A stretch of 61,568 nt of DNA, the filler included, from Jimgerdemannia flammicorona (lineage: Eukaryota): NCBI GenBank assembly GCA_003990765.1. It is 2 parts of 2 records of this genome, joined end to end, with 100 filler letters (N's around TTAATTAATTAA, not from the genome) between each part and the next. Parts side by side here need not be neighbours in the genome. Positions count along the whole stretch, not along the records: positions 30,846 to 61,568 come from RBNJ01000427.1; 1 more part is not named here. One strand, written 5' to 3'. Each line of letters opens with the position of its first letter. Positions within the stretch are counted from its first letter, which is position 1. Below are positions 1 to 49,750 of the stretch, piece after piece. Below the pieces are notes generated by a model. It saw only the letters and a program-made list of their open reading frames with translations. It made no database searches and was not told where the DNA came from. The position numbers and the translations under genes are program-made.

Positions 1-1
1 G

Positions 2-8346: not shown

Positions 8347-9954
8347 TATTACATAGTGGTCACTGAGTTCTTCAAATATACCAGATTCTCTTCAAGGTAT
8401 ATCTCTTAGACTAACTCAAGTTTGTTATAAGCAAGTTCTTATTAGAGTGCCTTCCCAAGGTCCTATAGTCCTCAAACTTCTTATCTTTAAACTGTTTTGT
8501 TATCTCTTAGATTGCTTGCAAGGAAGTATATATATTGCACTGAGAGGAACTGACTTTATTTCAGAGGAAATATGTAAGAGGAGTATTTATACAAAATATA
8601 ATTTAATGGTTGCTAAGATATAAAGCTAAATATAAATTCCAATAACTAAAACTACTAAGTTCCAGAGTCAGTACTGATGGTTGTACAGGTTCAGGATGCT
8701 GGAATAATTTAGTTTTACATCAGAATACTGATACTGGAATAATTTCATATCACCTCAGAATACCAATACTGGCATTATCCAGTATTATATAAGAATACCA
8801 GTGCTGGCATTATCCAGTATTACATGAGAATACCAGTGCTGGCATTATCCAGTGTTATATGAGAATACTGGTACTGGCATTATCCAGTGTAATAAAGAAC
8901 TTAGAGCAGAAAGTTCAAGACCATGGAGGCTTCATTATCATCATCATCATCACTGAAGGAGATGAGATCTACGAATTTGTTATATAGGTCGCATGTTTTG
9001 TGTACTTCGATGTCACATGGGATGATGTCATCACTGATGACATCATTACATTTGACCATGGGAAGGAGGTCTGGGGCTCTCTAGTCTATGAGGTTCTCTT
9101 CTACAAAATAAGGGACAAATGTGGGGTCTTGGGAGATCTAACCCAGATACTTGGGCCTTAAAATACTGAGATCAACCCTTGCAGGAATTGGTCTGGGTTG
9201 TCCTGGAGGATAGGGTGCCAGAAGTCTTCTACTTCATCACTATTGAGAGTAATAGTGGACTGGGCTTCTGTAGCCACCCTGGCTTCTAGTGTATTGATAT
9301 GGTGGAATGACAGGTTTCTGAAATCTGAGACTCTAATATACTCTAAGTTGGGGATTGACCATGGTGCATGCCTGAAGATCTGATAGATCTTCTTAGCTGT
9401 CCTTGTTTTGTATATATCCATGAGAGTGGCATCTTATAGCTCTTGAGTGCTGGTCTGTGGGAACTCCCAGCAGAGGAGGTTTTCTATTTCATACTCCTGC
9501 CACATTTAAAGGCATTCAGTAGTAATGGTGATCCTTGTTTCCATTTCATGATGATAGAGGATAAAGTGATAGGGATCTGCAGTACTCAGGTTAACACTAG
9601 AAGTCCTTCTTGAGCAGGTCCTAATGGCTCTTCTGATGTCTTGAAACATCCTTTCTTTGACTGAGATATCTTGGTGGTTCCTTGACCTTGAGGTTTGGTG
9701 GGCAGCAGGCATTTCATTTGTGGTAAGTCTTTGAGCTATTTTGGGATTGGTGGTTCTTATTGGTTGCTGCTACTGTGGTTCCTTGATCCTTCTTTTATAT
9801 TCTTCAGGATACTTGTACTGTGGTCACAATGACTCACAGTTGGTCATCATTGCTCATCTCATATACTATATAATCTTCTTGTGTTCTGATCTAGTGGCTT
9901 GCAAGGAAAGGCTGTCTCCTGTGCTGATGTCATCATTCTAGGGTCACTGTTACA
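8347..9954 (-). repeat. E2 3' LTR (~1.6 kb)
   Basis: Matches 15605-15814 + 21717-23030; on the minus strand it begins TGTAACAG right after the PPT. Contains a 35-bp tandem repeat (~8690-8890). Confidence 0.95.
8901..9712 (-). pseudogene. Accessory ORF embedded in E2 3' LTR (~270 aa)
   Basis: Pieces 9506-9712 and 9158-9421 plus an acidic tail (DDDDDNE) ending at TAA 8901-8903; aligns by eye with the E4 LTR ORF. Confidence 0.8.
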
Positions 9955-15592: not shown

Positions 15593-15601
15593 TGGGCACC
15601 A
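15593..15601 (-). promoter_or_regulatory. E2 primer-binding site (TGGTGCCCA)
   Basis: TGG start 3 nt inside the LTR end. Cognate tRNA uncertain (His-like, or Lys-like TGGCGCCC after CpG decay). Confidence 0.75.
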
Positions 15602-17935: not shown

Positions 17936-17968
17936 AGGCAGATTGACAACATCACATATATCATCAAT

Positions 17969-21624: not shown

Positions 21625-21986
21625 TGGGTCGGAATGATGTATAATTATTCATAGACTGGTAATAAAGGCAGAGTCCAAGTGACTATAAAAAAAAAAAAAA
21701 AGAGAGGAACTGACTTTATTTCAGAGGAAATAAGAGAGGTATTTATACAAAATATAATTCAATGGTTGCTAAGATATAAAGCTAAATATAAATTCCAATA
21801 ACTAAAACTACTAAGTTCCAGGGTTGGCACTGATGGTTGTACAGGTTCAGGATGCTGGTATAATTCAGTGTCACATCAGAATACCAGTACTAGAACAATT
21901 TTGCATCACCTCAGAATACCAGTGCTGGAATAATTTCACATCACCTCAGAATACCAGTGCTGGCATTATCCAGTGTAACAAAAAAC

Positions 21987-22788
21987 TTAAAGCAGAAAGT
22001 TCAGGACTATGGAGGCTTCATCATTATCATCATCATTACTGAAGGAGATGAGATCCATCAATTCATCATATAGGTCACATGTTTCATATACTTCAATGTC
22101 ACATAGAATGATGTCATCACTGATGATATCATCACATTTGGCAGCAGAGAGGAGGTCTGGGGCTCTCCAGTCTATGTGGTTCTCTTCTACAAAATAAGGG
22201 ACAAATGTGGGGTCTTGGAGAGATCTAACCCAGATGCTTGGGCCTGATCAACTCTTGCAGGAATTGGTCTGGGTTGTCCTGGAGGATAGGGTGCCAGAAG
22301 TCTTCTACTTCATCACTATTGAGAGTAATAGTGGACTAGGCTTCTGTAGCCACTCTGGCTTCTAGTGCATTGATATGGCAGGATGACAGGTCTCTGAAAT
22401 CTGAGACTCTAATATACTCCAAGTTGGGGATTGACCATGGTACATCCCTGAAGATCTGATGGATCTTCTTAACTGTCCTTGTTTCGTGTATATCCATGGA
22501 AGTGGCATCTTATAGCTCTTGAGTGCTGGCCTGTAGAAACTCCTGGCAGAGGAGGTTTCCTATTTCATACTCCTGCCACATTTGGAGGCATTCGGTAGCA
22601 ATGGTGATCCTTGTTTCTATTTCATAGCGGTAAAGAATAAAGTGATAGAAATCTGCAGTACCCAGGTTGACACTAGGAGTTCTTCTTGAGCAGGTCCTCA
22701 TGGCTCTTCTGATGTCTTAGAACATCCTTTCTTCAACTGAGATACCTTGGTGGTTCCTTGACCTTGAGGTTTGGTGGGCAGCAGGCAT
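21987..22788 (-). pseudogene. Accessory ORF copy in E2 5' LTR
   Basis: Duplicate of 8901-9712; ORF 22510-22701 reads LQMWQEYEIGNLL through a position that is a stop in the other LTR. Confidence 0.78.
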
Positions 22789-23034
22789 TTCATTTGTGGT
22801 AAGTCTTTGAGCTATTTTGGGATTGGTGGTTCTTGTTGATTACTGCTATTGCGGTTCCTTGATCCTTCTTTTATATTCTTCAGGATGCTTGTACTGTGGT
22901 CACAATGACTCACAGTTGGTCATCATTGCTCATCTTGTATGCTGTATGATCTTTTTGTATTCTGATCTAGTGACTTGCAAGGAAAGGCCATCTCCTGTGC
23001 TGATGTCATCATTCTGGGATCACTGTTACATTAT

Positions 23035-30845: not shown

Positions 30846-31647
30846 AAGTGACGACATCTTGAAAACTGATGATGTCAGAAGTCAGAAAACTGCTCAGACT
30901 TTGCCAGTGATGATGTCATCAATAGTGATGTCATCAAAGACTAACCAGACAGTGCCTAAACCTATAAATAGCTTAGCAATCATAGTATAGATAGATTAAC
31001 CTTGTACGACATGACTGTGAACTGACTCAGCAGTCAGACGATCTCTTGACATGTCAGATCACACTTGTACTATATGACTGCATTCCGACTCAGCAAAGCA
31101 CTTAGTGCTACACCCATATCTAGCCTAGTCCAGATAGCCCTTTACTAGTATAAATACCCCCTCCCCCAGACCTCAGAATCTCAGACTTGAACAGACTTGA
31201 ACAATCCGAATACAACTCCTGAGCACTTCCCCACAATATTCCTTCACACAACTACTCCTAGTATAGCAATATCATGAATAGCAAATAAACCTATTCCATA
31301 ACCCACAAACCACTCTTAAGTAAATCCGCTCTCTGTTAGGTCCTACTCCTAACCCTGTCACGAAATTTCCTAATTGGGTATTGTCTGCAGCGATACGCCG
31401 ATTCAACTAAGCTGGTCTTAGTTTCTTGAACTTCCTGAAATATGGAAAATCCTGAACATCCAGAACTAGTCCGGAAAAGGACTTTGGTTGAGACATCAAC
31501 CCGATCTTGAAATCAATAAGCATAGAGGACATACTCCATATGAAATTGATCTTGACCATAAGAAAACGGTCTTCCAGAATATCCAGAACCTCCAGAAAAC
31601 CCTTCTAGAACTACATAACGGTCACCCTAAAAAGTAACCCTCTTACA
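30846..31647 (+). repeat. LTR of family X (~0.8 kb) abutting/inserted in E3 RT
   Basis: Matches the reverse complement of 60153-60942 over its length, ends CTTACA, and is followed directly by mid-RT sequence LTEAVSEKSAFITPD. Confidence 0.85.
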
Positions 31648-34600
31648 CTCACAGAAGCAGTAAGTGAAAAGTCAGCCTTTATAACTCCAGATAGAACATA
31701 TGTCTATCTGCAAATACCATTTGGAATATACAATACATCAGCCAGTTTCCAGCAAATGATGAACAAAATCTTCCACTATGATATGAGAAAATGGATGATG
31801 GTTTATGTTGATGATATAATCATCTACAGCTATACACTAGAAGAACTCTGCAGCACATCTAGCAGATAATAGAAAGACTGAGAAAGCATAGCCTATACAT
31901 CAAGCCTAAGAAGTGCAAGTTTGCAGAAATTGAGATCTCCTATCTTGATTATATTATCAACTAAGATAGAATACACACTGACCCCCTCAAGATACAAGCA
32001 GTAGCAGTATACCCAAGACCCACTATGGTTACTGAAGCTCAGGCCTTCATGGGACTCACTTCATATTACTGAAGATTTATTAGAGAATTTTTTAATATTA
32101 CAGGTCCAATCTATGAACTCAACAAGAAGGATACCAAGCTCCAATGAACTGGCAGGCAGCAACAAGTATTTGATGAGCTCTAGGTCAGACTGACCTAAGT
32201 ACCCATCCTTAGAAGAGCAGACTGGACCCAAGAATTCATCCTTCAGATGATGCAAGTGCACAAGAACTAGAAGTAGTCCTAGTTCAAAAGAAAGACAAAG
32301 TAGAGTATATCATTGTATATCTCAGCTGTAGAACCTGAGAAGCTGAAAAAGAATATGAATTATACAAGTTGAAGTACCTCACAGTTATCTGGACTATAGA
32401 AAAGTTCTACTACTATCTGGCCAGAAAATACTTTACTATTCAAACAAACCACTCAGCTCTTACCTGGCTACTGACCACTGGACAACTCAAGGGAATCTAT
32501 GTCAGATAGATCATGAAGTTGCAAGCCTATGATGTAACCATCATACAGTGCTCAGGAAGAACCAATGCCAATACAGATGCCCTCTCATGGACACTCTGAA
32601 GGACCCCCAACCAACAAACCAATAATGAATAAAGAGCTCTACTACAGAATTATCATATATCTGGGATAGTGAAAGATGCCCCAACATCTGGAAGAATGGA
32701 CACAAATGATTATCAACAGAATATAGAAACAATTCGAAACTGATGGAGAAATACTGAAGAAAGGAAAACTACTAGTCATACTAGAACACAAGAAGGAGTA
32801 AGCAATAAAATCAGTATATGAACTCAGCTATCTAGGAGGAACCAATATATATAATAAAGCAAAAAGAACAATATAGTGGTCAGGAATGGATGAAGATATC
32901 AGACAATTTGTCAAGACCTGTGACAAATACCAAAAATAGAAACAAGACTAATGAAATTAAGCCCCAGGATCAGTACACATAGAACCAGTGCTATTTGCCT
33001 ATGTTGCAATAGATGTAATTGGCTCTCTACCCTTGACTCTGACTGGCAACCAATACATCATTGTTATTGTAGACCTCTTCATAAAATGGATAGAGGCAGG
33101 ACCCCTCAAAGAAGCCAATGTACAGTCAATTACTGATTTCTTTCATGAAGAAATCATCTGCTGATTCAAGACCCCAATACAAGTAACCACAGACAGAGGG
33201 ACAGAATTCATGAACCAGTTCTTCGAGGTTCTCTACAAGAAGTATAAGATCCAGCATATTTGGACCACAGCCTATCACCCTCAAGGAAATGGATAAGTAG
33301 AAAGGACTAACAAGACCCTCAAAAATGTTATCACAAAGATCTGCAATAACTACAAAAACTGAGATCACTATCTGCCAATAGCATTATCTGCTCTCTGGGA
33401 TATCTGATTATAAAGCACCCACTTTATCTCTTGAGAAATGCAATTTGGAGAAGAAAGTTCTCAAGGAACTCTATTGTCCAATAGAGATGCTGTATAGAAA
33501 CACATGGATATGGAGATATGGAAACTACACCAAATCAAGAAGAAGGCTGAGGATTACATAAACAAGATACAGACACTACAGCAGAATAATACAGAAAATA
33601 TTCACAAGCCCCTGGAGATTATCAAGATAGGAGACAAAGTCCTAGTATATTGGAACATGGTAGAAGCTTTATGGTCATGAAAACTGGAGCCTAAGTGGGA
33701 AGGACCTTAACTTGTGCAAGATATAAAAGGGATCACCTTTTGGTTATGAAAACTCTCAGGCACAATCATTCCTACTACTATTCACCAAAACTGCCTCAAG
33801 AAGTATCATGACCAGTCAAAAAAGTAATGCTACTGCCCTCAAGATTACTAGTACTGCCCAGTAAGCCATAGAAAGACAGTAGTGTTCCACTGAGCCACCA
33901 ATGATAGAGAAATCCTTTGACAGTATCCAGAGTATAGTGCAAATATACCTATTACAAATCTCACATTTCAAGGCCTATCAGAACTAAACTAAGTTCCTGG
34001 AATACTTCAAGTTGGGACAGCTACTAAATTCAAAACTGAAGATGGAAAAAGAAGACTAGATCAAGAAATGTTAGCTCTCCTATACTCAAATTATAATTGC
34101 AAAAAGAGTGTACAAATTATTCAAGGATAATGAGTCAGCCTTAACCTATTTCCAAGAAGTAACTCCAGGAGACTTTGGATATATCAAGAGATAATATTAA
34201 AAGAACATAATGACACAAATTGCACAGTATAAGGAAATACAAATTATAGAAGCCTGGAAATTTGAGTGAATAGGATACTCCAGAGATGAATCACCTATTC
34301 AGGAGGAAGATATGATGGCTGATCCAAATTAGTAATATGAAATAGAGAAATTAGACATTTGATTATAATATTTGAATCTAATTTCCAAAATAGCTTAACC
34401 TTATAAATAGCAGTCATATTCTGCAAAGTGCAGAAACTTTACCATTTGCAAAGATTTAAGAGATGTTAGAATATTTGTAATTAGTACAATCCTAGCAAAT
34501 GTTAAAAGATTCAATACTTGTAAAATGACTCATAACTTAGCCACCTTATAAGCTAGTAAAACATATATAAATAATCTAGCATCTTAGAGTGAATAAACCT

Positions 34601-35860: not shown

Positions 35861-37185
35861 TATCAATCTCTTATACTATATCGCCAGAAGTTCAAAATAC
35901 TTATGGGTTTAACTTTAAATATATATTAACATATAAAAGACAAATACTTCAACAAAATTAAAAAGAACATTGAAACTAATAAAATTGATATCTAAGCTAT
36001 AGTGGGTATATTTATCTAATTGCCCAATCATTTCTGTAATAATAACTCCATTTAATCAAAAATATTTGACCATATTCTTTAGTAGAATTTTGAAATTAAC
36101 TCATTTGCTAGATTGTGTATATAGATCAGTCATTCACAACTATTAAGAGTGATCAATTACATAGTATTCTTGGCCTCCTGAAGTATGATTTATATCTATC
36201 AAGTACTGATACTATTTGTAAAAATATCCTGAAGGTCTATAGGAAGAACTATAATAATCTTCACCAGATACTTTAGATAAAATAAATAAATAAGACCAAT
36301 ACTATGACCATTGTAAGCTAAATTATATATATATATATATAGAGCTCACTAATTTAATTAAACAGAATTCAGCAGACAGAATTTCAACTATAATTGATAT
36401 ATTGATATCCTTTAATATAATTTTATTTCTAGATATTACCAGTATTAAATTGATCTTGATTGATAACTTAAATCTCTTACCCTTGACTTCACCAAACTTG
36501 TTAGTCCTTATTTTGGAAAAACATTAGAGATGTTTTTATTAGTTGTATTCTGGAGCTTAGAATTACAACTAAGATAAAAAGAGAGACTTACTATCTAGCA
36601 TTTTGAGCAACTGAATATCATGATATTGTTTCTATCAATCTCTTATACTATATAGCTAGAAGTTCAAAATACTTGGTGGTTCAACTTCAAACATATATCA
36701 ATATATAAAAGACAAATACTCCAACAAAATAAAAAAGAATACAAAAATAAATAAAATCAATATTCAAGCTATAGTACATTTATCTAATTGCCCTACAATT
36801 TCTGTAACAATAACCCTATTTAATTAAAAATATTTAACCATATTCTTTAGCAAAATTTCCAAATTGACTTATTTGCTGAATTGTGTATATAGACTAGCTA
36901 TTTACAACTATTGAGAGTGATCAATTGCATAGTATCTTTGATCTCCTCAAGTATGATTTATATCTACCAAGTACTGATAATCTTTATAAAGATATCCTGA
37001 AGGCCTATAGGAAGAAATATGATAATCTTCACCAGATACTTCAGATAAAATAAATAAATAAGAGTAATACTATGGCCATTGTAAGCTGAATTATACATAT
37101 ATATATATAAAGAGCTTACTAATTTAATCTCACATTTAATAAATAGAATTTAGTAGATAGAATTTCATTTAAAATTGATATATAG
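35861..37185. repeat. ~770-bp tandem duplication; second copy continues at 49755-49946
   Basis: 35861-36595 matches 36633-37185 + 49755-49946; the first copy shows the empty E4 insertion site. Confidence 0.88.
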
Positions 37186-39550
37186 TGTGATGTACACAAT
37201 TGACAATAGAGTACCGGTGACTGCTAAGATCAGACAACATAATGGCATGACAATCAAATAGACAGCCTGACCCATTAGGTGATCATCCCAAAAGAAGACA
37301 AGATGATCCAAGCCAAAATGAAGACCACATTATTTAAGGAACCATACTCTGCCTCAAGGATCAGCACCAAAGAACCAAGTACCCACCACACAATGCCTCC
37401 TATTCGCCGAACCAATCAGACCTCCTGCCGCTCTACCCCTTTGCCTGGCCCAAAGACCCTGATCTTTGAAGCTATCAAGAAGACCATCTGGCGCCCAGAT
37501 ACTTCCAAACACTTGAACTTCTATACTGAGGACGTTGGACACTTCATCAACTACCAGTATATAATGACCCAACAGCTCAAAGACACTACCGAACGAATGA
37601 CCCTCTGGCATGACTATGAAATCGGACACCACCTTCACAATGAGACTCAAGAAGGTGACCAGGAAGACCTCATTGCCGAAATGATAACCACCAGCCAGCT
37701 AATCAAGAGAGCCCTCTGTGTCCATCAAATCTTCTGCCATATTCCCTGGGCTATAGCACACTTACAAGGAGTGACAGCTGGCAGCCTCTCCCACCTTTCA
37801 ACTGAAGATGCTGACTGGATAGAATCTGAAGTAGCCAATGCTATTGGCAGCAACTGCATTGCCATAGGAAGCCAACAAACTGAACCTACTCAGCCAGGTT
37901 TCCACACCACCCCACTCTAAGACAACCATCAAGGTCACCTAATGAGTCTTATGGAGATATTTGAAGGACCGCCCATCACTATAGAGGCACCCATTGGAGC
38001 TACCCCAACCACCCACCACCCTGTCAGCCATAATTCACAGCTCATCATTTGGGAACCAAATTAAGAGGAGGCCCAAGAACTCCAAGACCCTGCCCCTGAA
38101 GAAACCCCCTCTGACACTGAAACTGATGAGCCTTCAGAAGAAGAAGAGGAGCAACAGAGAGTCTACCAGTCCTCTGTCCACATTCAAGCTGTTCAAGGGT
38201 TGGAGAATGTTGTTGAAGATGACTGGCCACTTTGCTACCCCCTCACCTCTTGGCCAGCACTTCCCCCCTTTGAGGAGAGATATGATGAAGAAGAAATCAC
38301 AACCCAGCAAGATTTGCCCACCACAGATGAAGGGTACTATTTCCTCTAGAGTACCATCCATCAGCTATGAGAACCCAGCTTTTGTCAGCAAGTCCGTTTC
38401 CAGCATTGCTACCCAGTACCACCATTTTCAGCATTTTGTCAGCAGGTCCAAATCCAGCATTGCCACCCTCCACAACCACTTCTGGCAACAATCATCATAT
38501 CATGTCAGCTCATCTGAATCCAGCATTGCTACCCAGTACCACCATTTTCAGCATTTTGTCAGCTCATCCGAATCCAGCGTTGCTATCCCCTATAACCCAA
38601 TCTGTAGTAAACAATGGCCTGCATCTCGCATTGTGCAAGCCAATAGCATAGCGAAGTTCACTACAATGTAGTATACCTTAGCCTTAGTCACGCCCCCTCC
38701 TCCATAGCTAGCAAACTTGTATAAATAACCCATATTCTTAGAGTGAATAAACCTCAGTCAGTTTGTGTTTAAAAGTAAAAGGAATTACAGAGAAACCACT
38801 GCCTCCAAGAGACCGGATAAATTCTGAGAATAAGATAACTAGAGCAACGATCGCTCGAGGTTTGAGTAAAAGAATTTTCTCTTGCCATGGAAAGAAAACA
38901 TTACCCGACCGCCGCCATTCGACTGCTATTTGAGACCCAAGACCCAGCCAAGGATTCAAGACCAGACTGCCATTCGGACTGCTATTCGGACTGCCATTCG
39001 AGACCCGAGACTCAGCCAAGGATTCAAGACCAGACCACCATTCAGACCACCATTCGGACCACACATTCAGACTGCCATTCGAGATTCAAGACCCAGAAAC
39101 CCAAGGATACCCAGACAAAGGATACTAGACTGCCAAAGACCAACCTGCTGCCAAAGACCTGAATGACCACCAGGAACCTAACAAGTTAAGATGGACAAGC
39201 AAGCCATCAACCTCTGTTTTTCCGAGCTACTGTGTCACGAACTGTTCAAAGTCAAGCCTGTCATCGCCGCCAAGTTATTCGCTGCCCTTTTCTACTAGAT
39301 ATTGAGCCATTGAACAATCAAACGACCTCATCCACTAAACAATTGAGCTGCCATCATTGAACAACCAAACATCCCCACCATCGATGTTCTGAGCCCTCTG
39401 ATGAACAATTGAATTCCTGCTATCAATTATTGCACATTTCGAATGACCTGTCACGTGACCAGCGACCTGTGAACGTCACCAATGCCTTCAGTTATACATC
39501 GCGTGCTTCACCAGTGGCACACATTAAGCCGTGCAGTCGAAGTTCATTAT
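37186..39550 (+). repeat. E4 5' LTR (last 17 bp missing)
   Basis: Near-identical to 47372-49733; TATAAA 38720, AATAAA 38746. Confidence 0.95.
37393..38349 (+). pseudogene. Accessory ORF in E4 5' LTR (318 aa consensus)
   Basis: ATG 37393 to TAG 38349; two TAA stops are CAA in the 3' LTR copy. Confidence 0.85.
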
Positions 39551-42500
39551 TGACCATTTGGCTCAAGAACCCAGCTATCTACAGTGGAGAACTTAGCAGG
39601 ACCAAGTCAGCAACCAAACCAGGGGCAGCAACAGCCCTCCTCAGCAGAAAAGAAAGCCCACACCCTTGTCAGAACAGTAGCCAGGACCCTATTCAACACC
39701 AGTAGCCAGAAAACCGAATCAGAAGAAAGAAGTGACCCAGATTACAGTTTGACTTCAAGAGAAAGGAGATGACTCAGAGGACAACCAGAACTGCCCCTTC
39801 AGATCCAAGACTTAGACCAAGAAGAAGAAGAGGATATCCCTGAGGAGTATCAGACCCTTATCCATAGGAAGAACTCAGACAGAAGCAACTACATAACTAC
39901 TGTTATCACTCGAGTCACTCCACTAGACCAAGTATACTTTGAAACATCAGAAGGAGAAGAGGACTATCATCCATATCAACCAGAACAAGATGACGATTGG
40001 GGATCAGACCATCAAAGGGATGAATTCAACCTATACTATTATCCTGACAGCAACACTGACCCACAACAAGGCGAACAAGACCTCACTACTTCACAACAGC
40101 AAGGGGCAGACGAACTCACTATCAGTTATATCAGTCCACTCCCACCATCAGTTGCTCAAACTTCAGTACCCTGGTCACTCACACCTCACCACTATCACCA
40201 GTCTATCAGAAGATCTCCACCACTACCCAGGACTTCAACCCCAGCATTAATTAGAAGAGCCAGATTACCCTCACCCTCACCAAGACACCCTCTGCCAGCA
40301 CCACTAGTTCATCAAGTACTAGTACCACCACCTTTCCCATCACCCCGAGGATCTGCCAGATCTCCTACCCCTGAACAATACTCAGATAGTGAAGATGAGC
40401 CAGACATGAGCTACCTTCAGAAGTTCCATGGTGCAGACAATGAAGATATCGAGGAATTCTTTGGAGAAATTGAAGTTCAAGCAGCTGCCAAACAATGGGA
40501 TGCTGCAAGAAAACTCAGAATCATGGAGTCACTCCTGAGAGGACCAGCCCTACAGAGGTATAATCAAGCCAAGCAAGCCGGAGGAGGAATCCATACAGAG
40601 GAACTGAATGATGGCCTTCAACCTGATAGGAACCATGTAGCAAGGTACATGATTCACAAAGCCTGGCTCCATGCCCAGTTCAATGGATTCGAGCGTCAAC
40701 AAGAAGCACAGGAGGCTTTGACCTATATGAGCCAAGCTGCCAATGAAACTCCCAAGAGTTTCTACCATCGGATTCAAGCTCAAATGATCAAGGTGAACCT
40801 TCAACCAGCAGTCCAACTGGCCCTAGCCTCAACTACCTTCCTCAATGGCTTATACCCAGAACTCTGAAGGCAAGTTATCAGGATGGGATATCGAAACATT
40901 GAACAGCAAGTTGCTGGAGCACAAGGATGTTGGGAAGCAGATTATAGACCAGTACAACAAGTACAAGGCTATCCTGAGCCAATCCAAGCTGAAACCCCAA
41001 GGACCTGAGGAACAACTATGGAGTAAGAGAATGCCTTCCTCAGAGCCCAGATAGCCAACTATGAGAACAGACCAGCATCCACAAATCCGACTCCATTCAG
41101 GCAATCACAGCAGCAGCCACCATCAAGAGTTCAAGAAGACCCTATGACAATGCTCACCAAGCAAATGAAGGACCTGGCCATCACGGTTACCCAGCTGAAC
41201 AACCAAGGTAGAAGACAACAAGACTACCATCATGATAACAGACCAGACTACTGGCAACAAGACAACAGAGGTCCTGCCCCCACACTACCAGCTGCAACTA
41301 CAGCCTCATCAGTGACTGGTTCCTATGGTCCCACCTGCTTCAGCTGTGGAAATCAAGGCCACATCCAGAGGAATTGTCCAAGGAACCAATCCACCCAGTC
41401 CAATGACAGAAATGTCAACCTCTTTCAGGTAGACAAAGAGACTCAGGAGATGGAAGAAGAAGCAGCCTGGCTCCATGGTCAAGAAGATGACATCTATCTG
41501 TACTTCGAGGTCTTTCCATCCAAGGTGACATGGGAAGCTGCCCCCGCAGAGACCAGAGGGCGAGGAAGACCACGAAGGAACCCCCCACCTCAACTGCCAG
41601 TAACTATATCCACAGGCAAGCATCCGTGGCATGGCTATTCTTCTTCAGACACTCCACAAGAACAGGGGAAGTGAGTTAGAAGAGATACTCCTGAACCAGA
41701 AGCCAGACCATCTAGGACAACCCCCAGCTCTACCCTGCAGACCTTGAAGAAGATGAGCATATGAGCATAAAATCTTCAGCTGATGAAATGCCCATCAGGA
41801 ATGAGAGACTACACCCCAAGGGACCAAGACACCGAAGAAGCAGCAAGCCCCATGCAGCAGCCTCACTTTGGGAACATATCCGCCTACAGAATGCTGGTCT
41901 TACAGTTGAGCAAGTCCTCAAGAATGCACCAGAGGTCAGGCGAAAATTCCTGAAAGAAGCCAAGGAAGATACCAAGAGACTTCCAGTCCAAGGACCACAC
42001 ACTCAAGAACCTAGCACTATCCACACAGTCCATGAGAGCCTGCGACACAAAAATCAATCTACAAGACTCGCTGATGGAAAAGTGCATGGTGAAAATGCCA
42101 GAATTCTCGTCGATACTGGAGCAGCAGTATGCATCATCACCCAAAGAATGTTGGAGCGAATTGGATGGGGAATAGATGAAGGAACCAAAGCAAGAGTTAT
42201 CATAGCTGATGGATCAGCTTCCACACCCCTTGGACTTGTCAGAGACATCCCCATTCAAGTTGGAAAGGCCCGCCTCAATGTACCCAAAGCCGTCGTGACC
42301 CCCACAACCTCCTATGACCTAATCCTGGGAACTGACTGGTTAAGCCGAGTGGGAGCCAATATAGATATCAAGAAACAACTCCTGGTCTTCTCCACTCATG
42401 GACAGAAGCACAAGGTGCCTATTGACTCGAAAGGATTATCTAAAAAGACGAATCAAGTCTTAGAAACAGAATGGCAAGGACATGGCAACACCCCCACTAC

Positions 42501-44406
42501 TACTGAGGATGAAAGCAAGGCCAATTTCCTACAAGAACTAGGAAGTGATTTCGATGCCCCAAGGGACCAAGAAAGCGAACAAGAAGACTCTTTCATTGGA
42601 GTTATTGGTGTTGAAGGCCTGGAAGAAAGCATTGATAGAGCCATTAATGTAAGGGCAGCACTTGAGTTTGCAGGACCTTCTGCTCAACCACCACCACCAC
42701 TGGTAGAAAATCAGATCATGCGAGCCTTTCATCGAGGCATATACGAACACTTCATTAGCTTCCACTCACCAAGAGATGATTGCAGCAATTGCCGAATCCT
42801 GGATCTCAAGAAGGTTCCAATGCCAGAAATTGATAACAAGGACAAATTGAAGCAAGCACCATCCTACAGCCAAATACAACCTCCAACCCCGAAGACCTTC
42901 AAGAAGACCTATAAGGAAGGACAGAAGATCCTCGCCCGCCAAACATTTGAGTCCCTTACCATCGAAGGAGAAAGCAACAGCTCTTACACTATCACTCAGG
43001 CCCTCCAGATCATACAGCCCACCTATGACAAGTATCGGAAGAGATTCCCTACCAGTAGGGAGGTCAAACAGTGAAATGAAGACTTTGTCAAGAAGAGACA
43101 TTGTGATTGTGGAAAAACCTTTATCTGCTACTGGTGTGAACATCGAGATATTCACCTCAGCGAAGATGTCTACAAGAGCCGAGTCAAGAGAAAGGACCCC
43201 ACCCTGCAAGAACCTCGAATTCGCTGGGCCTGTCAGAAGTGCAAAGAAATCAACCATAAAGGAGATTGCAAGTTCAAGAGCAAGACCTCTATCTGAGACC
43301 TACTATTGGAAGTTCTTGCCATCATTCGCTGGTACTGCCGCCCTCATCAAGGAAAAGAAGGTATCAATCTTGCCTTCATCGTTATGGAAGCTCTGGACCC
43401 TCTAGGAAAGACTGGATTCAATTACACAAGAAACTCAAAGATAGGAGCTCACTGGCCTTTCTTCAAACTGGAGTACATGGACTTCTTACCTACAATGGCA
43501 ACAGCTGAGGCGCCATTTCTCAAAGCTCAACCAATTATCCAGGTCAAGCTGCTTTCTCCCTGGGCACAGCCACCTCTTGCACAAACAGAAGGATCAGTTG
43601 GTTATGACCTCTGCCTCCCCTACCAAGCAAGAATCCGCCCCAGAAGTACCAGGACTTTTGACCTACAGATCACACTCGCTATACTACCTGGGCATTATGG
43701 ACAATTGGCCTCAAGATCCTCATTGGCAACCAAAGGAGTCACAGTAGAAGGAGGAGTCATTGATCAGGACTACCGAGGTCCCTTGAAGGTCATTATCTGC
43801 AATTCTAGTAGAGCCAGCCAATTCTTCAGTCCTATGGAAGCCATCTGCCAAATCCTGTTTATCAAGACATTACAGCCGACCATCCAAGAGGTAGACCAAC
43901 TAGAAGATACTAACAGAGGACAAGGAGGCTTTGGAAGCACCAATAGAAATCTACGAACACCACCTATCGAGGTTCATTTGGCAACAGTTGCTCAATTCTG
44001 ACAAATGAGACCCCACATCTGCCACCCAATCTGAGCAAGAGAAGACATCCTCCTGCAGCCCTACCAGCAAAAAGGCCTAGATGTGCACCTACCAGTAGAA
44101 GCAGACAACTTGATATTTGCACCATCACTGGAGCTTCAAAAGGAATACCACATCCTCCTGGCTGAAGAACGAATTCATGACCAGATGTCACCAATCCACA
44201 TCCCTATCAGAAACTTGGGCTTCGAAGTGATAACTATCCCCAAGGGAACAACACTGGGATATTTCGAACCATTGATAGACACCTACAAGGAAGAAGTCTT
44301 TGAATTCTTGGGAAATGGCAAGCCCTCTCTGGTGAGACTGATGGTACCAGGGAGGAAGACTCAGCAAATTCAGCAATCAAAGCCATCGACATCGAGACAA
44401 CTCTAA
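39551..44406 (+). pseudogene. E4 gag-PR-uncharacterised domains-dUTPase polyprotein (5' end deleted)
   Basis: Gag with CFSCGNQGHIQRNC knuckle, protease LVDTGAAVC/DLILGTDW, dUTPase; mostly CGA>TGA-type stops and one frame change near 41700. Confidence 0.92.
43540..43941 (+). CDS. E4 dUTPase domain (uninterrupted)
   Basis: VGYDL, ASRSSLA, GGVIDQDYRGPL, AICQI, RGQGGFGST. Confidence 0.94.
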
Positions 44407-45842
44407 TCAAGGACCAGTAACAACAAATACAGGAGTTGATAGAGGAGTACAAAGATATATTTACCACCACATATGATAACTTCCCACCATATCAATATGG
44501 AGAACACCCTATACATACTGGAGATGCAAGACCAATCTGACAATGACCCTACCGAACACCACATCATCTGATTGAATTCGAACAATAACACATAGACGAA
44601 ATGCTATAAAATGGAGTCATCAGACCATCATCAAGCCCCTGGGCCTCACCAGCAATCATAGTACCAAAGAAAGGAGGATGGAGATTAGTCGTGGATTTCA
44701 GAAAACTCAACAAAGTCACCACAGAAGATGCCTACCCACTGCCAAGAATTGATGACCTCATCAATGCCCTTGGAAAAGCCAAATACATGACCACTACCGA
44801 CCAGTTCCAAGGATTCCAAGTAATACCCATTGCCAAAGAAGATATCTGCAAGACGGCCTTCATCACCAGACGAGGACAGTATGAATACCTATGAATGCCC
44901 TTCAGACTCTGCAATGCACCCGCCTCATTCCAATGAATGATAAACTATGTCTACCGGGACCTCATTGGAAGAAATGTACTAGTGTACATAGATGATGTCA
45001 TCATCTACTCTGAGACATTCAAGCAGCATTTGCAAGATCTCCATGAAGTATTTGATACCATTCGAAATTCAGGACTCAGACTCAATGCCAAGAAGTGCTT
45101 CTTTGGAAAACATCAAGTCGAATATCTGGGATATGTTGTCTCAGCTCAAGGAACACATGCCGACCCCCGCAAGGTAGAGAAAGTCAAGAACTACCCAACC
45201 CTGACCTCAGCAAGGGAGACCCTATTCTTCCTTATGCTGGCATCCTACTATTGATGATTCATCCCAAGGTTTTTGGATAAGGCAGCACCTCTCCGAGATA
45301 TCTCCAAGAAGGACCAATCATTCTACTGGAAAAAGGAACAACAAAAGTCATTCGACCTACTCAAGAAGGCCCTTACTGAAGCCCCTGTCCTGGTGTGACC
45401 AGACTTTGGCAAACCATTCATCCTGGCAACTGATGTCTCAGCCTTAGGACTTGGATCAATTCTGTCTCAGCAAGATGACCAAAAGAGGGAGCATGTTATC
45501 GAAATGCTAGCAAGGCCACGAATGAAACACAAGTGAACTATGGAGCCACTAAGTTGGAATGCCTAGCAGTAGTTTGGGCTGTAGACCACTTCCAACACTA
45601 TCTCTTAGGAAAGAGATTCACCCTCATCACTGACCATCAAGCTACAATGGTTGTTCAATAAGCCGGAGCCCTCAGGAATCTTTGCTAGATGGATCATGTC
45701 CCTGCAAGAATATCAGTTCACTATTGTCTACAAGAAAGGTGCTAAGAATTCCAATGTTGATACTCTGTTAAGAATCCTGCGAAACCAACAAGAAGGGAAG
45801 GAGCCCCCACAAGAGAAGGCTGCTTCCTGCCCACCCAAATGA
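44310..45842 (+). pseudogene. E4 reverse transcriptase + RNase H
   Basis: SPWASP, DFRKLN, YPLPRID, VYIDD, ATDVS, TDH; in the -1 frame relative to the upstream ORF. Confidence 0.95.
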
Positions 45843-47046
45843 ACCAAGAATTGCACCTCGCCCTCACCTGGAGCCTGCACCATAGAAGCTTCAAAAAAGG
45901 AATTCAACCAGTCCACAAGTTGTTTATCCAAAGGAATTTCAAGAAATTCCAAGAAGGCGATGGCAAACTTTGGAGAGTAGAGGGAGAGCAGTACACCCGA
46001 GTTCTAAGAGAAGAAGAAATATTGAAGATCCTGACAACAAATCATGACCAAAATGCACACCGAGGAATTGGTGCCACAATTGCAAGAATCAAGAAGCGAT
46101 ACTGGTGGCCCAAGATGAGAAAACAAATTTCAACACACATTCAACAATGTGATACCTGCCAAAGATACCGACAAAAGCCTACTGACAGAGCACCATTAAT
46201 ACTGATCGCAGCACCAGCTGGAGCCTTTCAAAAACTAGGAATAGACATTATTGGACCCCTACCAGTAACTGGATGAGGAAGATGCTACATCCTCACTATC
46301 GAAGACCACCTGACAAAATAGCCTGAAGCCTTTGCCATCGAGACTGCCGATGCCCAGACAATTATTGGGATCCTGTATGATGAAATTTTCAGCTGTCATG
46401 GTGTGCCCAAGGAAATCATTACAGACCAAGGTTGAGAATTTATCAACCAAGCCATGAAGACCTTTGCGAGCAACTTCAAGATCAAGCTATGACCAACAAC
46501 AGCCTACTACCCACAGGCAAATGGACTCACTGAACAAATGAACCAGACCATCAAGCGAGGTCTCAGTAGAACTGGAGATCAACTAAACTGGGATATCTAT
46601 CTACCGGCAATTCTGTTCATCCGTACCTCTAAGGCAACTGCTACCCCTTCTATTTGGTGTATGGCCGAGAAGCACAAGATCCTACTGAACCAGTCCAGCT
46701 AGATCTGTCAAAATGAGTCACAGAAGAGATCACCCGGTTACACAATATATGCCAGCAAGCACGAGGATTTATTGCCAAGGCACAAGAACGCCAAAAGAGA
46801 TACTATGACCGCAAAGCCGACCTCGAACCCCTGCTCATTGGACAAAAGGTTCTGGTGTACCGTACCATCATAGAAGGAAATTGGAGTGCCAAGCTTGAAC
46901 CAAAATGGGAAGGCCCCTATCTCATACACCAAGTATTCTTGAACCACACTTATCAACTCAAGACCTTGGATGGAGTTATACTCAAGACCAAGATACATCG
47001 CAACCGCATAAGAATCTACTACTCAAGAGAAGCAAAACGCATTTGA
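45839..47046 (+). pseudogene. E4 integrase (separate ORF)
   Basis: HDQNAHRG..WWP..CDTC, GIDIIGPLP, ITDQG, PQANGLTE, KWEGPY; ATG overlaps the RNase H TGA. Confidence 0.93.
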
Positions 47047-47371
47047 ACAATCCTGTTCACTCTGTCTGTGTCATCTCCACTGGAGATATAATGGACGTTT
47101 CACTCAGAACTCAAGAAAGCCAACAACGTTGAAACCAGACTTAAGCCCATCCATGTGACAGACATTGTTACTAATAAATTGCCTCGGATTACAAGTAATA
47201 CTATTTCCGATTGGTTCAAACCCCTAGCTGTGACTATGGGAGCCCTCGCCCTAGACAAGGATGGCCAGTCCTCACAAATGTACCAGCATTCCGCTTGTCC
47301 CTGGAGTTAAGACCACTCAACTCTGTATAACCCTCACCACCGAGGACGGCTCTAATTTTGCAAGGGGCAGA

Positions 47372-49750
47372 TGTGATGTACACAATTGACAATAGAGTAC
47401 CGGTGACTGCTAAGATCAGACGACATAATGGCATGACAATCAAATAGACAGCCTGACCCATTAGGTGATCATCCCAAAAGAAGACAAGATGATCCGAGCC
47501 AAAATGAAGACCACGTTATTTAAGGAACCATACTCCACCTCAAGGATCAGCACCAAAGAACCAAGTACCCACCACACAATACCTCCCATTCGCCGAACCA
47601 ATCAGACCTCCCGCTGCTCTACCCCTTTGCCTGGCCCAAAGACCCTGATCTTTGAAGCTATCAAGAAGGCCATCTGGCGCCCAGATACTTCCGAACACTT
47701 GAACTTCTACACTGAGAACCTTGGACACTTTATCAACTACCAGTATATAATGACCCAACAGCTCAAAGACACTACCAAATGAATGACCCTCTGGCATGAC
47801 TATGAAATCGGACACTGCCTTCACAATGAGACTCAAGAAGGCGACCAGGAAGACCTCATTGCCGAAATGTTAACCACCAGCCGGCTAATCAAGAGAGCCC
47901 TCTGTGTCCATCAAATCTTCTGCCATATTCCCTGGGCTATAGCACACTTGCAAGGAGTGATAGCTGGTAGCCTCTCCCACCTTTCAACTAAAGATGCTGA
48001 CTGGATAGAATCTGAAGTAGCCAATGCTATTGGCAGCAACTACATCGCTATAGGAAGCCAACAAACCAAACCTACTCAGCCAGGTTTCCACACCACCCCA
48101 CTCCAAGACAACCATCAAGGTCACCTAATGAGTCTTATGGAGATATTTGAAGGACCACCCATCACTATAGAGGCACCCATTGGAGCTACCCCAACCACCC
48201 ACCACCCTGTCAGCCACAATTCACACCTCATCATTTGGGAACCGAATCAAGAGGAGGCCCAAGAACTCCAAGACCCTGCCTCTGAAGAAACCCCCTCTGA
48301 TACTGAAACTGACGAGCCTTCAGAAGAAGAAGAGGAGCAACAGAGAGTCTACCAGTCCTCTGTCCGCATTCAAGCTATTCAAGGGTTGGAGAATGTTGTT
48401 GAAGATGACTGGCCACTTTTCTACCCCCTCACCTCTTGGCCGGCACGTCCCCCCTTTGAGGAGAGATATGATGAAGAAGAAATCACAACTCAGCAAGATT
48501 TGCCTGCTACGGACGAAGGGTACTATTTCCTCTAGAGTACCACCCATCAGCCATGAGAACCTAGCTTTTGTCAGCAAGTCCATTTCCAGCATTGCTACCC
48601 AGTACCACCATTTTCAGCATTTTGTCAGCAGGTCCAAATCCAGCATTGCCACCCTCCACAACTGCTTCTGGCAACAATCATCATATCATGTCAGCTCATC
48701 CGAATCCAGCATTGCTACCCAGTACCACCATTTTCAGCATTTTGTCAGCTCATCTGAATCCAGCATTGCTATCCCCTATAACCCAATCCATAGTAAACAA
48801 TGGCCTGCACCTCACATTGTGCAAGCCAATAGTATAGCGAAGTTTGCCACAACATAGTATACCTTAGCCTTAGTTGCGCCCCCTCCCCCATAGCTAGCAA
48901 ACTTGTATAAATAACCCATATTCTTAGAGTGAATAAACCTCAGTCAGTTTGTGTTTAAAAGTAAAAGGGATTACAGAGAAACCACTGCCTCCAAGAGCAG
49001 ATAAATTCTGAGAACAAGATAACTAGAGCAACGATTGCTCGAGGTTTGAGTTAAAGAATTTTCTCTTACTATGGAAAGAAAACATTACCTGACCACCACC
49101 ATTCGACCGCCATTCGAGACCCGAGACCCAGCCAAGGATTCAAGACCAGACCAACATTTGGACCACCATTCAGACCGCCATTCAAGACCCAAGACCCAGC
49201 CAAGGATTCAAGACCAGACCGCCATTCGGACTGCCATTCGGACCACGCATTCAGACTGCCATTCGAGATTCAAGACCCAGAAACCCAAGGATATCCAGCC
49301 AAAGGATACTAGACTGCCAAAGACTGACCCACTGCCAAAGACCCGAACGACCGCCAGGAACCTAACAAGTTAAGATGGATGAGCAAGCCATCAACCTCCA
49401 TTTTTCTGAGCTACTGCACCATGAACTGTTCAAAGTCAAGCCCATCATCACCACCAAGTTATTCGCCGCCCTTTTCCACTGGATATTGAGCCATTGAACA
49501 ATCAAACGACCTCATCCACTAAACAATTGAGCCACCATCATTGAACAACCGAACATCCCCACCATCGACATCCTGAGCCCTCTGATGAACAATCGAATTC
49601 CCACTATCAATTATCGCACGTTTCGAATGACATGTCATGTGACCATCGCCCGCGAACGTCACCAACGCCTTCAGTTATACATCGCGCGCTTCACCAGTGG
49701 CACACATTAAGCCGTGCAGTCGAAGTTCATTATACATAACTGACACCACA
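47372..49750 (+). repeat. E4 3' LTR (2379 bp)
   Basis: TGTGATG...CACCACA, duplicate of the 5' LTR. Confidence 0.96.
47579..48535 (+). pseudogene. Accessory ORF in E4 3' LTR
   Basis: Same ORF; ATG>ATA and one CGA>TGA, otherwise open (47783-48535). Confidence 0.85.

Follow-up and report, generated by a model that had tools for sequence, protein, structure and literature searches.

Retrotransposon LTRs are regarded as non-coding control regions: pipelines for the annotation of transposable elements mask them, and gene callers label ORFs within them as orphan 'hypothetical proteins'. HIV/SIV nef and foamy-virus bel/bet and Tas are 3'-terminal accessory genes that overlap U3 and are expressed separately from gag-pol, and foamy-virus Tas is a transactivator, produced from a separate internal promoter, that acts on the LTR. 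The VANC protein of the Arabidopsis VANDAL (Mutator-like) elements is fast-evolving and family-specific; it targets the tandem repeats of its own element and relieves DNA methylation. MMTV carries a dUTPase together with an LTR-encoded gene (PMC11998498, in part), and the gypsy element Cer1 needs an accessory protein, CERV (PMC10309623, in part). Extra conserved ORFs are also present in plant Ty3/gypsy elements, namely ORF1 of Ogre, the antisense aORFs of Retand and Grande and the env-like ORF of Athila, some of them with promoters of their own (excerpts of PMC7264820); a phrase search of the excerpted review found no mention of ORFs within LTRs. In the literature searched (mostly open-access papers, main text) no account of a conserved ORF within a Ty3/gypsy LTR turned up; among the papers listed for terms such as 'LTR ORF', MMTV sag was the commonest subject, and the others used the wording in different senses. 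An LTR-borne accessory gene in the retroviral style is not normally seen in Ty3/gypsy elements.

The window analysed here is a stretch of 61,568 nucleotides of Jimgerdemannia flammicorona DNA (assembly GCA_003990765.1), made up of two parts joined by filler; its background is AT-rich (25–30% GC). The two elements of main concern, E4 and E2, are set out in Table 1. The LTRs of E4 are 93.7% identical over 2365 nt (blastn of the window against itself), and its internal region matches the Pfam families zf-CCHC (E = 4e-05), gag-asp_proteas (3e-14), dUTPase (6e-30), RVT_1 (2e-14) and Integrase_H2C2 (2e-18), in that order, which is the Ty3/gypsy order with integrase after RT. RNase H was not detected in the decayed E4 ORFs of at least 100 aa and was found in the related element E1; no PBS was recognisable on inspection of the E4 sequence. 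The gag of E4 gave merely weak Retrotrans_gag-like leads in the ESM Atlas. For E2, the same blastn comparison gave the repeat pairs 8766–9955/21852–23031 (88%) and 8351–8556/15609–15814 (96%), and the TG...CA ends, purine tract and PBS-like site are terminal features of Ty3/gypsy elements. Having terminal repeats, a polypurine tract and this domain order, the carriers are Ty3/gypsy (Metaviridae) LTR retrotransposons. A dUTPase between PR and RT is likewise present in bdelloid-type elements (PMC5408684). Between E4 and E2, identity is 26–38% across gag, PR, dUTPase, RT and IN.

Table 1. Features of the E4 and E2 elements, in positions of the window
Feature	Position	Strand	Basis
E4 5' LTR, 2365 nt	37186..39550	+	direct repeat of 47372-49733; flanks gag-PR-dUTPase-RT-IN
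TATA-like box 1 TATTTAAGG, 62 nt upstream of ORF ATG, E4 5' LTR	37331..37339	+	both E4 LTRs (37331, 47517)
LTR ORF, E4 5' copy, 318 codons; interrupted by two stops in frame (codons 176, 224)	37393..38349	+	frame reading
54-nt tandem array, 3.7 copies, directly after E4 ORF stop codon	38376..38585	+	TRF
CCAAT, E4 5' LTR	38640-38644	+	
TATA box 2 TGTATAAATA with AATAAA 26 nt downstream, E4 5' LTR	38718..38751	+	motif pair; presumed genomic-RNA promoter and shared poly(A) signal
CpG-rich tandem arrays (12, 25, 68 nt), presumed U5	38915..39081	+	TRF
E4 internal region: gag (zf-CCHC), protease, dUTPase, RT, integrase	39773..47046	+	Pfam; decayed, many stops
Polypurine tract GCAAGGGGCAGA, adjoining E4 3' LTR	47360..47371	+	direct reading
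E4 3' LTR	47372..49733	+	direct-repeat partner of 37186-39550
LTR ORF, E4 3' copy; lacks its start codon, single stop in frame (codon 68)	47579..48535	+	frame reading
TATA box 2 TGTATAAATA with AATAAA, E4 3' LTR	48904-48937	+	motif pair
E2 3' LTR, ~1.6 kb, TGTAACA...TGTGACA-type ends; purine tract CAGGAGGAAGA ahead	8347..9954	-	repeat pairs and direct reading
TATA box 2 with AATAAA, E2 3' LTR	8555..8593	-	motif pair
35-nt tandem array, 5.1 copies, directly after E2 ORF	8711..8888	-	TRF
LTR ORF, E2 3' copy	8901..9712	-	frame reading, homology
TATA box 1 of E2, TATAAAAG, 87 nt upstream of ATG	9792..9799	-	both E2 LTRs
PBS-like TGGTGCCC, 3 nt past E2 5' LTR end	15594..15601	-	direct reading; primer-binding role inferred
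E2 5' LTR, remainder	15605-15814	-	separated from major part by 5.9-kb poly(A)-ended insertion
E2 5' LTR, major part	21702..23030	-	repeat pairs and direct reading
TATA box 2 with AATAAA, E2 5' LTR	21715-21749	-	motif pair
LTR ORF, E2 5' copy; in-frame stops and frame shift	21990..22788	-	frame reading, homology

A preliminary description of this DNA had held that each E4 LTR contains the same ORF, with complementary lesions in the two copies. Both points are borne out: the 318-codon frame is present in each LTR, and the lesions of the 5' copy fall at other codons than those of the 3' copy. The peptides quoted from E4 are at 37462, 37540, 37591 and 37708, and recur in the 3' copy; those quoted from E2 were located on the minus strand at 9649, 9568 and 9400 in the 3' LTR and at 22593 in the 5' LTR. 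Broken copies were translated with X at stops, their sequences being left unrepaired. The E2 3' copy is interrupted in its conserved domain by three in-frame stops, is shifted in frame once, near 9125, and has another stop in the tail. The ORF lies wholly within the LTR in sense orientation, its ATG 208–242 nt from the LTR 5' end and preceded by A at -3 in all three lineages checked. A tblastn search and a profile hmmsearch of all six frames found these four copies and no others in the window; for E1, a third dUTPase-gypsy element (1 to ~6000; LTR not delimited), the profile hmmsearch gave no homologue downstream of pol. All four copies are dead and the substitutions between the E4 LTRs look neutral within the ORF (20 synonymous and 26 non-synonymous, where 32% synonymous is expected for random transitions), so the window gives no sign of current function.

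Comparison between families gives evidence of another kind. The ORFs of E2 and E4 align at 28% identity over 181 aa (BLASTP, E = 4e-19), which upholds the claim that the E2 LTR carries a clear homologue, a claim that had been staked on such an alignment; the intact relatives P0003 and P0014 align with E = 1e-21. At the DNA level the E4 and E2 LTRs gave no alignment (best blastn match E = 0.038), and in a tblastx comparison of the whole LTRs one of the 14 listed HSPs was significant and lay within the ORF frame (E = 4.7e-14). Codon alignments among E4, E2 and the metagenome contig L001 (NG86) gave pS of 0.70–0.76, which is saturated, and pN of 0.37–0.50, which is not; between-family dN/dS, proposed at the outset as a check, is ~0.18–0.35 where dS is finite. 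Naturally open frames exist in four lineages, represented by P0003, P0006 and P0010 (324–331 aa), P0011 (342 aa), the L001 ORF (291 aa) and P0014 and P0018 (247 aa), and because of these intact homologues the case for an intact protein is independent of any consensus. The E4 5' copy is 73–77% identical to the intact environmental proteins P0003, P0006 and P0010, and the E2 3' copy is 84% identical to the 247-aa P0014 over residues 1–176; an alignment of 10 sequences contains 30 invariant columns. That the ORF is no gene at all and simply a chance open frame in a long LTR, as the breakage of every window copy might suggest, is refuted by homology of the LTR families at protein level only, by pN far under saturated pS, and by the intact frames in four lineages; its probability is negligible.

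The divergence of the ORF about equals that of gag-pol, so the ORF is read as an old, selected part of dUTPase-bearing elements. We consider it very probable that it is a real, selected protein-coding gene wholly inside the LTR. On these alignments it is a long-maintained accessory gene of a dUTPase-bearing Ty3/gypsy clade, common to two deeply diverged families.

The family is tiny, with seven matches among 1.84 billion protein representatives, and its conservation rests on four lineages. L001, a 1.5-kb contig with an LTR layout like that of E4 and E2, was the one locus recovered among 166 pattern matches in metagenome contigs. Its nucleotides 10–57 match at 81% a segment 85–130 nt before the E4 3' LTR, and its ATG follows ~320 nt further on; it appears to supply an LTR context for the ORF in a third lineage. 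Relatives 85–99% alike are present in soil-metagenome contigs (from four of the nine matching sequencing runs: X1, X3, X4 and X5). Each of the nine runs matched with a small share (0.05–0.14), and X5, possibly an RNA run, covers the LTR at an uneven depth that allows no interpretation. Together with the AT-rich background and published dUTPase-gypsy elements, such relatives may point to a soil fungus, for instance an arbuscular-mycorrhizal or basidiomycete species, as host.

This distribution bears on whether the gene might be a passenger, a captured host gene or a de novo gene that is carried in the LTR but is of no use to the element, or that has been co-opted by the host, in the way that endogenous sag copies of MMTV serve their host (PMC11998498, in part). 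No stand-alone or fused cellular homologue accompanies the seven protein matches; pattern matches gave no relative in viral contigs (0 of 63) or in prokaryote genome contigs (0 of 25), and no fused or longer homologue was found among proteins of 600–2000 aa, which is weak evidence. A passenger of no benefit to the element is also hard to explain, since the gene has been retained in the same place though pol is only 26–38% identical. We regard a passenger as very unlikely.

Across intact relatives the protein is 247–342 aa long and is predicted to be soluble. A short, basic, Pro-rich N-terminus (MPxxR...PLP; charge +2 to +5 in the first 20 residues) leads into a conserved domain of ~180–200 aa with the motifs W-[HQ]-[DE]-Y-E-I, H-Q-[IV]-F-x-H-x-P and F-[EQ]-G-P; its pI of 5.4–6.5 is near neutral, not basic, and AlphaFold2 predicts it, with low confidence, to be mostly helical. 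The tail is fast-evolving by comparison with the domain, and is probably disordered (pLDDT ~25–35, AlphaFold2). It is acidic, as had been noted at first sight: its net charge is -14 to -25, with bulky hydrophobic W/F/L residues interspersed. In three of the four lineages it contains the motif D-L-I-x-F-[SE] followed by acidic runs, a motif absent from E4-type tails, and the hydrophobic C-termini are preceded by acidic residues. Hydropathy analysis of seven members showed neither a signal peptide nor a TM segment: the N-terminus is hydrophilic, and Kyte-Doolittle means over 19 residues peak at 1.19 or less in 7/7, so the protein is neither Env-like nor Sag-like; the preliminary description had set Env aside on the same grounds.

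The protein matched no described domain. Searches of Pfam returned no family at E<=1 for any of 10 members; phmmer found no PDB sequence at E<=1, and a profile search of the PDB gave a best E of 0.51; P0003 found no usable match in the ESM Atlas. AlphaFold2 models were poor (mean pLDDT 41.6 from a 10-row alignment and 48.2 from a 15-row alignment), and with the second of these the best scores were a VIA Z of 3.6 among 48,161 chains and a Foldseek E of 0.61. Because the models are poor the fold comparison is uninformative, and provides no evidence of a new fold. On these comparisons the protein would constitute a new family, matching no described sequence family and with no outstanding fold match for the poor models.

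The arrangement of signals around the ORF suggests how it might be expressed. In three lineages TATA box 1 has a conserved position ahead of the ATG, at a distance of 62–87 nt, TATAAAAGAA standing at the equivalent place in E2 (87 nt) and L001 (82 nt). Downstream of the ORF the tandem arrays of E2 and E4 occupy the same relative place and are unrelated in sequence. Beyond them, as the preliminary description had it, comes a TATA box: the pair TGTATAAATA...AATAAA is found in all four E2 and E4 LTR copies. It occurs five times in the window, four of the five in these LTRs (chance expectation 0 in 100 shuffles), and is the sole DNA motif common to both LTR families. From the positions of these motifs it is tempting to suggest that the LTR is a self-contained cassette, in which TATA box 1 would drive an mRNA of ~1.2–1.4 kb ending at the LTR's own AATAAA. 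With AATAAA 26–31 nt after TATA box 2, genomic RNA would start at or after AATAAA and would therefore have a whole poly(A) signal at its 3' end and nowhere else. In the cassette layout the gene would lie in U3, at the 3' end of the genomic RNA, and a spliced message would be an alternative route to its expression.

Since TATA box 1 lies upstream of the ATG, placement of the gene in U3 depends on which promoter is used for genomic RNA. Were it TATA box 1, then R would be ~1.2–1.4 kb long and include the ORF, which would be the first cistron before gag and not a U3 gene. The conserved position of TATA box 1 in three lineages, and the A at -3 of the ATG in all three, are consistent with such a leader protein. 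Such an architecture would need read-through of the AATAAA in the 5' LTR as well as an unusually long R, and what the two LTR families share in their DNA is TATA box 2 followed within 26–31 nt by AATAAA, the classic layout with the signal ahead of the start, so that its use is confined to the 3' end. We think a leader protein improbable; it is a proposal about expression alone, and any of the functions considered here could go with it.

The E4 LTRs carry a record of their treatment by the host. Differences between the pair affect cytosines at 98 of 202 CpG, 7 of 233 CHG and 32 of 744 CHH sites, a pattern from which it appears that the host methylates these elements at CpG. RIP was rejected, the decay being CpG-specific, and since CHG sites show no elevation a methylation pattern of plant type is unlikely.

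The reading that we favour is that the ORF is a real LTR-borne gene whose product, specific to its family, regulates the family's own LTR positively; for this statement as a whole we put the probability at roughly 0.35. The protein would be brought to that LTR, the family-specific array between the ORF stop codon and TATA box 2 being a plausible site, and the acidic-hydrophobic tail would then activate transcription or counteract host silencing by CpG methylation. A trans-activator or anti-silencing factor, as suggested in the preliminary description, is thus far a candidate drawn from composition and position. Several considerations count against a regulator. No DNA-binding fold was found for the protein (Pfam, PDB and fold searches with poor models), and its conserved domain is near neutral. 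Many proteins with no relation to one another have acidic-hydrophobic tails. As for the tandem arrays, they may be LTR enhancers of the ordinary kind, or mere products of slippage unconnected with the protein.

The same tail would suit a host-factor antagonist or adaptor analogous to Vpr, Vif or Nef, whose domain would bind a restriction or silencing protein while tail motifs route the target to degradation or sequestration. D-L-I-x-F-[SE] with its acidic runs, and the acidic residues before the hydrophobic C-termini, resemble what we take to be SUMO-interaction motifs (SIM) or, at the C-terminus, Atg8-interaction motifs (LIR); a fast-evolving tail on a conserved domain is what would be expected of conflict with the host, and the elements are targeted by CpG methylation. 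Such short linear motifs also arise by chance in acidic, disordered sequence, however, and E4-type tails are without D-L-I-x-F, so that an antagonist seems to us rather unlikely. Nor do we favour an RNA-handling accessory protein analogous to Rev, Rem or CERV, which would bind unspliced genomic RNA and serve its nuclear export, stability or packaging. The basic N-terminus, the predicted helical domain and the position of ORF and arrays at the presumed 3' end of the genomic RNA would fit this role, and Cer1, itself a Ty3/gypsy element, depends on such a protein, lineage-specific and without homologues, whose gene lies 3' of pol (PMC10309623, in part); but Pfam and PDB searches gave no RNA-binding motif and no family match, and a long acidic tail is atypical of Rev-like proteins. 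Such a role is doubtful.

The favoured reading, a positive regulator of its own LTR, can be taken a step further. Promoter, ORF and poly(A) signal together might make the LTR itself the gene, producing a family-specific trans-acting factor that keeps the LTRs of the family transcribed, or unsilenced, in a methylating host; we offer this tentatively, as a possibility with the odds against it. As each LTR copy brings the gene with it, and solo LTRs may retain it, gene dosage would follow the copy number of the family. If the LTR does act as a gene, then each insertion, and possibly each solo LTR, would contribute one or two units of expression. The Metaviridae would thereby have their first accessory gene embedded in an LTR, and a counter-silencing circuit, self-reinforcing and dependent on copy number, would reside in the very repeat at which the host silencing machinery is aimed. 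The gene provides a testable candidate for self-regulation of large LTR elements or for resistance to silencing by CpG methylation.

Set beside the systems described at the outset, the locus carries the idea of accessory genes over from retroviruses (sag, nef, tas) to Ty3/gypsy elements that have no env. Whereas nef, bel/bet and Tas merely overlap U3, the E4/E2 gene lies wholly within the LTR, and Pfam, PDB and poor-model fold searches revealed no similarity of sequence or fold to regulators of complex retroviruses. VANC offers a possible functional analogy, resting only on the adjacent family-specific arrays and the CpG-methylated LTRs; it is an unrelated protein of DNA transposon origin. With the additional ORFs of plants the gene shares its standing as a conserved extra of Ty3/gypsy elements to which no function has been assigned (excerpts of PMC7264820). 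CERV, from Cer1 of C. elegans, is likewise a lineage-restricted gypsy accessory protein without homologues; its gene lies 3' of pol, and the protein is required in trans (PMC10309623, in part). In contrast to CERV, to which Pfam and PDB searches revealed no sequence similarity, the E4/E2 gene is inside the LTR with a TATA box of its own, and by that location is duplicated at both ends of the element. MMTV Sag is a type II transmembrane glycoprotein, whereas the E4/E2 protein is without a hydrophobic segment or a Pfam match: neither the type II TM feature nor similarity to Sag was found (KD(19) <=1.19 in 7/7 members; no Pfam family for 10/10), and the carrier here is an env-less Ty3/gypsy retrotransposon. 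The likeness to MMTV is one of architecture: sag is a gene of ~320 codons inside the LTR, upstream of the main promoter, in a virus that has its dUTPase next to the protease (PMC11998498, in part), and in E4 and E2 the ORF has the same Sag-like position, upstream of TGTATAAATA in both LTR copies of each element.

The window holds a nest of decayed retroelements; the DNA around them is AT-rich (25-30% GC). Six-frame profile search together with tblastn located exactly four copies of the LTR ORF, a reading frame lying within LTRs and 318 codons long in E4; the profile search of the window gave no further match below E 0.1. As the preliminary description had claimed, the same frame occurs in each LTR of the element E4, with different lesions in the two copies; the homologue that it placed in the E2 LTR is carried by both LTRs of the element E2, here with stops and a frameshift. 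Each peptide quoted in that description was found where it had been placed.

Features of the LTR ORF and its carrier elements
Feature	Position	Strand	Details
LTR ORF, E4 5' copy	37393-38349	+	318 codons; in-frame stops at codons 176, 224
LTR ORF, E4 3' copy	47579-48535	+	start codon lost; one stop, codon 68
E4	37186-49733	+	LTRs 2365/2362 nt, 93.7% identical
E4 LTR pair	37186-39550 and 47372-49733	+	
E2 3' LTR	8347-9954	-	
E2 5' LTR	21702-23030 + 15605-15814	-	split by 5.9-kb insertion ending in poly(A)
E1	1 to about 6000 (1-6057)	+	third dUTPase-gypsy element, decayed
dUTPase-bearing gypsy fragment	about 31600-34000	+	decayed
TATA box 1, E2	87 nt upstream of ATG		TATAAAAGAA; in both E2 LTRs
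TATA box 1, metagenome contig L001	82 nt upstream of ATG		decamer identical to E2's TATAAAAGAA
TATA box 1, E4	62 nt upstream of ATG		TATTTAAGGA; in both E4 LTRs

The interior of E4 runs gag (zf-CCHC), protease, dUTPase (PF00692, E 6e-30), RT and integrase, and a purine tract directly adjoins its 3' LTR. It is a Ty3/gypsy element with dUTPase between PR and RT, an arrangement reported for basidiomycete and bdelloid gypsy-like elements (PMC2864245, PMC5408684). The LTRs of E2 have TG...CA ends, the 5' LTR being followed by the primer-binding-like site TGGTGCCC, and its interior encodes protease, dUTPase, RT and integrase. The pol of E1 is 38-52% identical to that of E4; the stretch downstream of the E1 integrase gave no LTR-ORF homologue, and the E1 LTR could not be delimited. 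The fragment at 31.6-34 kb is inverted relative to E2 pol, with which it shares 69-77% DNA identity. The insertion in the E2 5' LTR (15815-21701, +) is a GC-rich (54-56%) element of about 5.9 kb with strong G skew, an RVT_1 domain at 19433-20383, a 607-codon ORF at 16112-17932 without Pfam matches and a poly(A) end at about 21686-21701. It resembles a non-LTR retrotransposon that entered the LTR about 20 nt past its AATAAA. A contig from the soil-metagenome run X1 (depth 2.2; shorter side 32 nt) joins the E4 flanks 37181/49751, skipping the whole element. It could stem from an unoccupied site or from a paralogue of the repeat in the flanks, where 36401-36607 resembles 49751-49961 at 83%.

The two E4 copies of the LTR ORF differ at 46 of 954 nt. 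Transitions account for 41 of these changes, and 23 lie in a CpG context; 20 are synonymous and 26 non-synonymous, where random transitions predict 32% synonymous. Divergence since insertion has been roughly neutral, and the copies in the window are dead. Over the entire LTR pair, differences affect 98 of 202 CpG cytosines, against 7/233 CHG and 32/744 CHH. Such almost purely CpG decay indicates that the host methylates the cytosines of transposons CpG-specifically, clearly including the E4 LTRs; with differences so concentrated, the pattern is neither RIP nor the plant-type CHG one. The presumed E4 U5 contains, at 38915-39081 and 49100-49270, short tandem repeats rich in CpG (12-, 25- and 68-nt units of GACTGCCATTCG type), and these are the most diverged stretch of the pair.

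The LTR ORF is nonetheless a gene, on four lines of evidence, and a chance ORF is excluded. Between the E4 and E2 LTRs nothing is alignable as DNA (best blastn E 0.038), whereas on translation the ORF frames pair at E 4.7e-14, the sole significant match among the 14 HSPs listed; the protein alignment, which the preliminary description had anticipated, extends over 181 residues at 28% identity (E 4e-19). Codon alignments of E4, E2 and L001, a 1535-nt metagenome contig with an intact 291-codon frame, gave saturated pS of 0.70-0.76 against pN of 0.37-0.50, far from saturation. This contrast is the robust result: NG86 dN/dS between lineages, about 0.18-0.35 where dS is finite, is rough because dS is saturated. 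Among 5.8 billion proteins, a word-indexed search yielded three relatives from 524 candidates, the best (P0003, 325 aa, 73% identical) representing a cluster of six. When 1.84 billion representatives were scanned exhaustively with phmmer, seven relatives emerged, among them P0011 (342 aa, 33%), P0012/P0017 (36%) and P0014/P0018 (247 aa). This last pair is an E2-type protein with an intact frame, 84-88% identical to the E2 copies in the window. Such rarity may reflect poor sampling of the host rather than a truly rare family. Across ten family members 30 columns are invariant, conservation that rests on four lineages. Finally, the 28% identity between E2 and E4 compares with 26-38% for gag, PR, dUTPase, RT and IN; the ORF has therefore travelled with the element since before the two families split, under constraint about as strong as that on Pol.

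The ATG lies 208 nt (E4) or about 243 nt (E2) from the first base of the LTR. Nucleotides 10-57 of L001 match at 81% the segment 85-130 nt before the E4 3' LTR, so this contig runs from the last part of an internal region into an LTR that has the ORF in the same place, and it gives a third lineage sharing the layout. The matched segment, of about 45 nt (47242-47288; GCCCTAGACAAGGATGGCCAGT.CTCACAAATGTACCAGCA-like), is also 78% identical in an element fragment at 61028-61072 (-), whereas the ORF flanking the segment reaches only about 29% protein identity. The segment may act as a conserved cis-element close to the PPT, on its upstream side, or may encode the very C-terminus of pol. A weaker look-alike stands in E2, 30-65 nt ahead of the 3' LTR.

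A TATA box stands upstream of the ATG in all three lineages (E2, L001 and E4), and E2 and L001 have in common the 5'-UTR string AGACTTACCACAAA. Directly 3' of the stop, E4 and E2 each have a tandem array peculiar to the family (3.7 copies of 54 nt and 5.1 copies of 35 nt, respectively; none at the score threshold in the short 3' flank of L001). Then comes TGTATAAATA, with AATAAA 26-31 nt further on. This module, the TATA box upstream of which the ORF had been said to lie, is indeed 3' of the ORF in all four LTRs; it occurs five times in the window against none expected. The fifth copy (8153-8186, -), just beyond the E2 3' LTR, seems to be part of another LTR, the target of the E2 insertion, and indicates a core promoter/poly(A) module common to three or more LTR families, although the search detected no homologue of the LTR ORF next to this copy. 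A TATA box with a poly(A) signal near the expected start suggests that full-length RNA begins at or after AATAAA and so carries the whole signal at its 3' end only. The ORF would then belong to U3 and stand at the 3' end of genomic RNA, and TATA box 1 could give a 1.2-1.4-kb ORF mRNA that terminates at the poly(A) site of the same LTR; a spliced message would be an alternative route. This layout, with its start, end and splicing, is drawn wholly from motif positions, from which TATA box 1 might also be the genomic promoter, with a very long R, though we consider this improbable.

In seven of seven members tested the protein is without a hydrophobic segment (maximum KD(19) <=1.19) and has a hydrophilic N-terminus, in agreement with the earlier claim that it lacks signal and TM segments; it resembles neither Env nor Sag. 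The first ~20 residues are basic and contain much Pro (MPxxR...PLP), the conserved domain has a near-neutral pI of 5.4-6.5, and the tails are acidic, as described, with net charge -14 to -25. Helices are predicted across the conserved domain at low confidence, from poor models, and the tail is predicted to be disordered (pLDDT about 25-35). Pfam gave no family at E<=1 for any of ten members, and searches of PDB sequences and the ESM Atlas likewise gave no match, so in these resources it corresponds to no described retroelement domain; fold searches used a poor predicted model and assigned no fold. The product is a selected, LTR-borne, soluble protein comprising a conserved, predicted helical domain and a variable acidic tail. 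Three lineages have a tail motif D-L-I-x-F-[SE] beside acidic runs and a C-proximal P-x-[IV]-L-N-F, in place of which E4-type tails have DDWPLF.

The LTR ORF sits between a TATA box and the main promoter module of the LTR. We consider it most likely, at a probability of roughly 35%, that its protein serves as a positive, family-specific regulator of the LTR that encodes it, and would act as a transcriptional activator or counter-silencing factor, because the tail is composed like an activation domain, because the gene lies next to repeats peculiar to the family and to the core promoter, and because the host methylates these LTRs (the 98/202 CpG differences). It might instead be an RNA export or packaging factor, by analogy with CERV of Cer1 (PMC10309623), a host-factor antagonist acting through the tail motifs, or a passenger gene.

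We rate the LTR ORF as an accessory gene of a kind known in retroelements, with a new protein family and a location new for Metaviridae, since the literature covered by the search yielded no description of a conserved ORF within a Ty3/gypsy LTR. The additional ORFs of plant gypsy elements lie in the internal region (PMC7264820) rather than in the LTR. The nearest formal parallel is MMTV, in which dUTPase likewise stands beside protease and the LTR encloses a gene of some 320 codons (PMC11998498). Sag, however, is a membrane protein of type II, and a protein with no hydrophobic segment does not belong to the Sag-like class.
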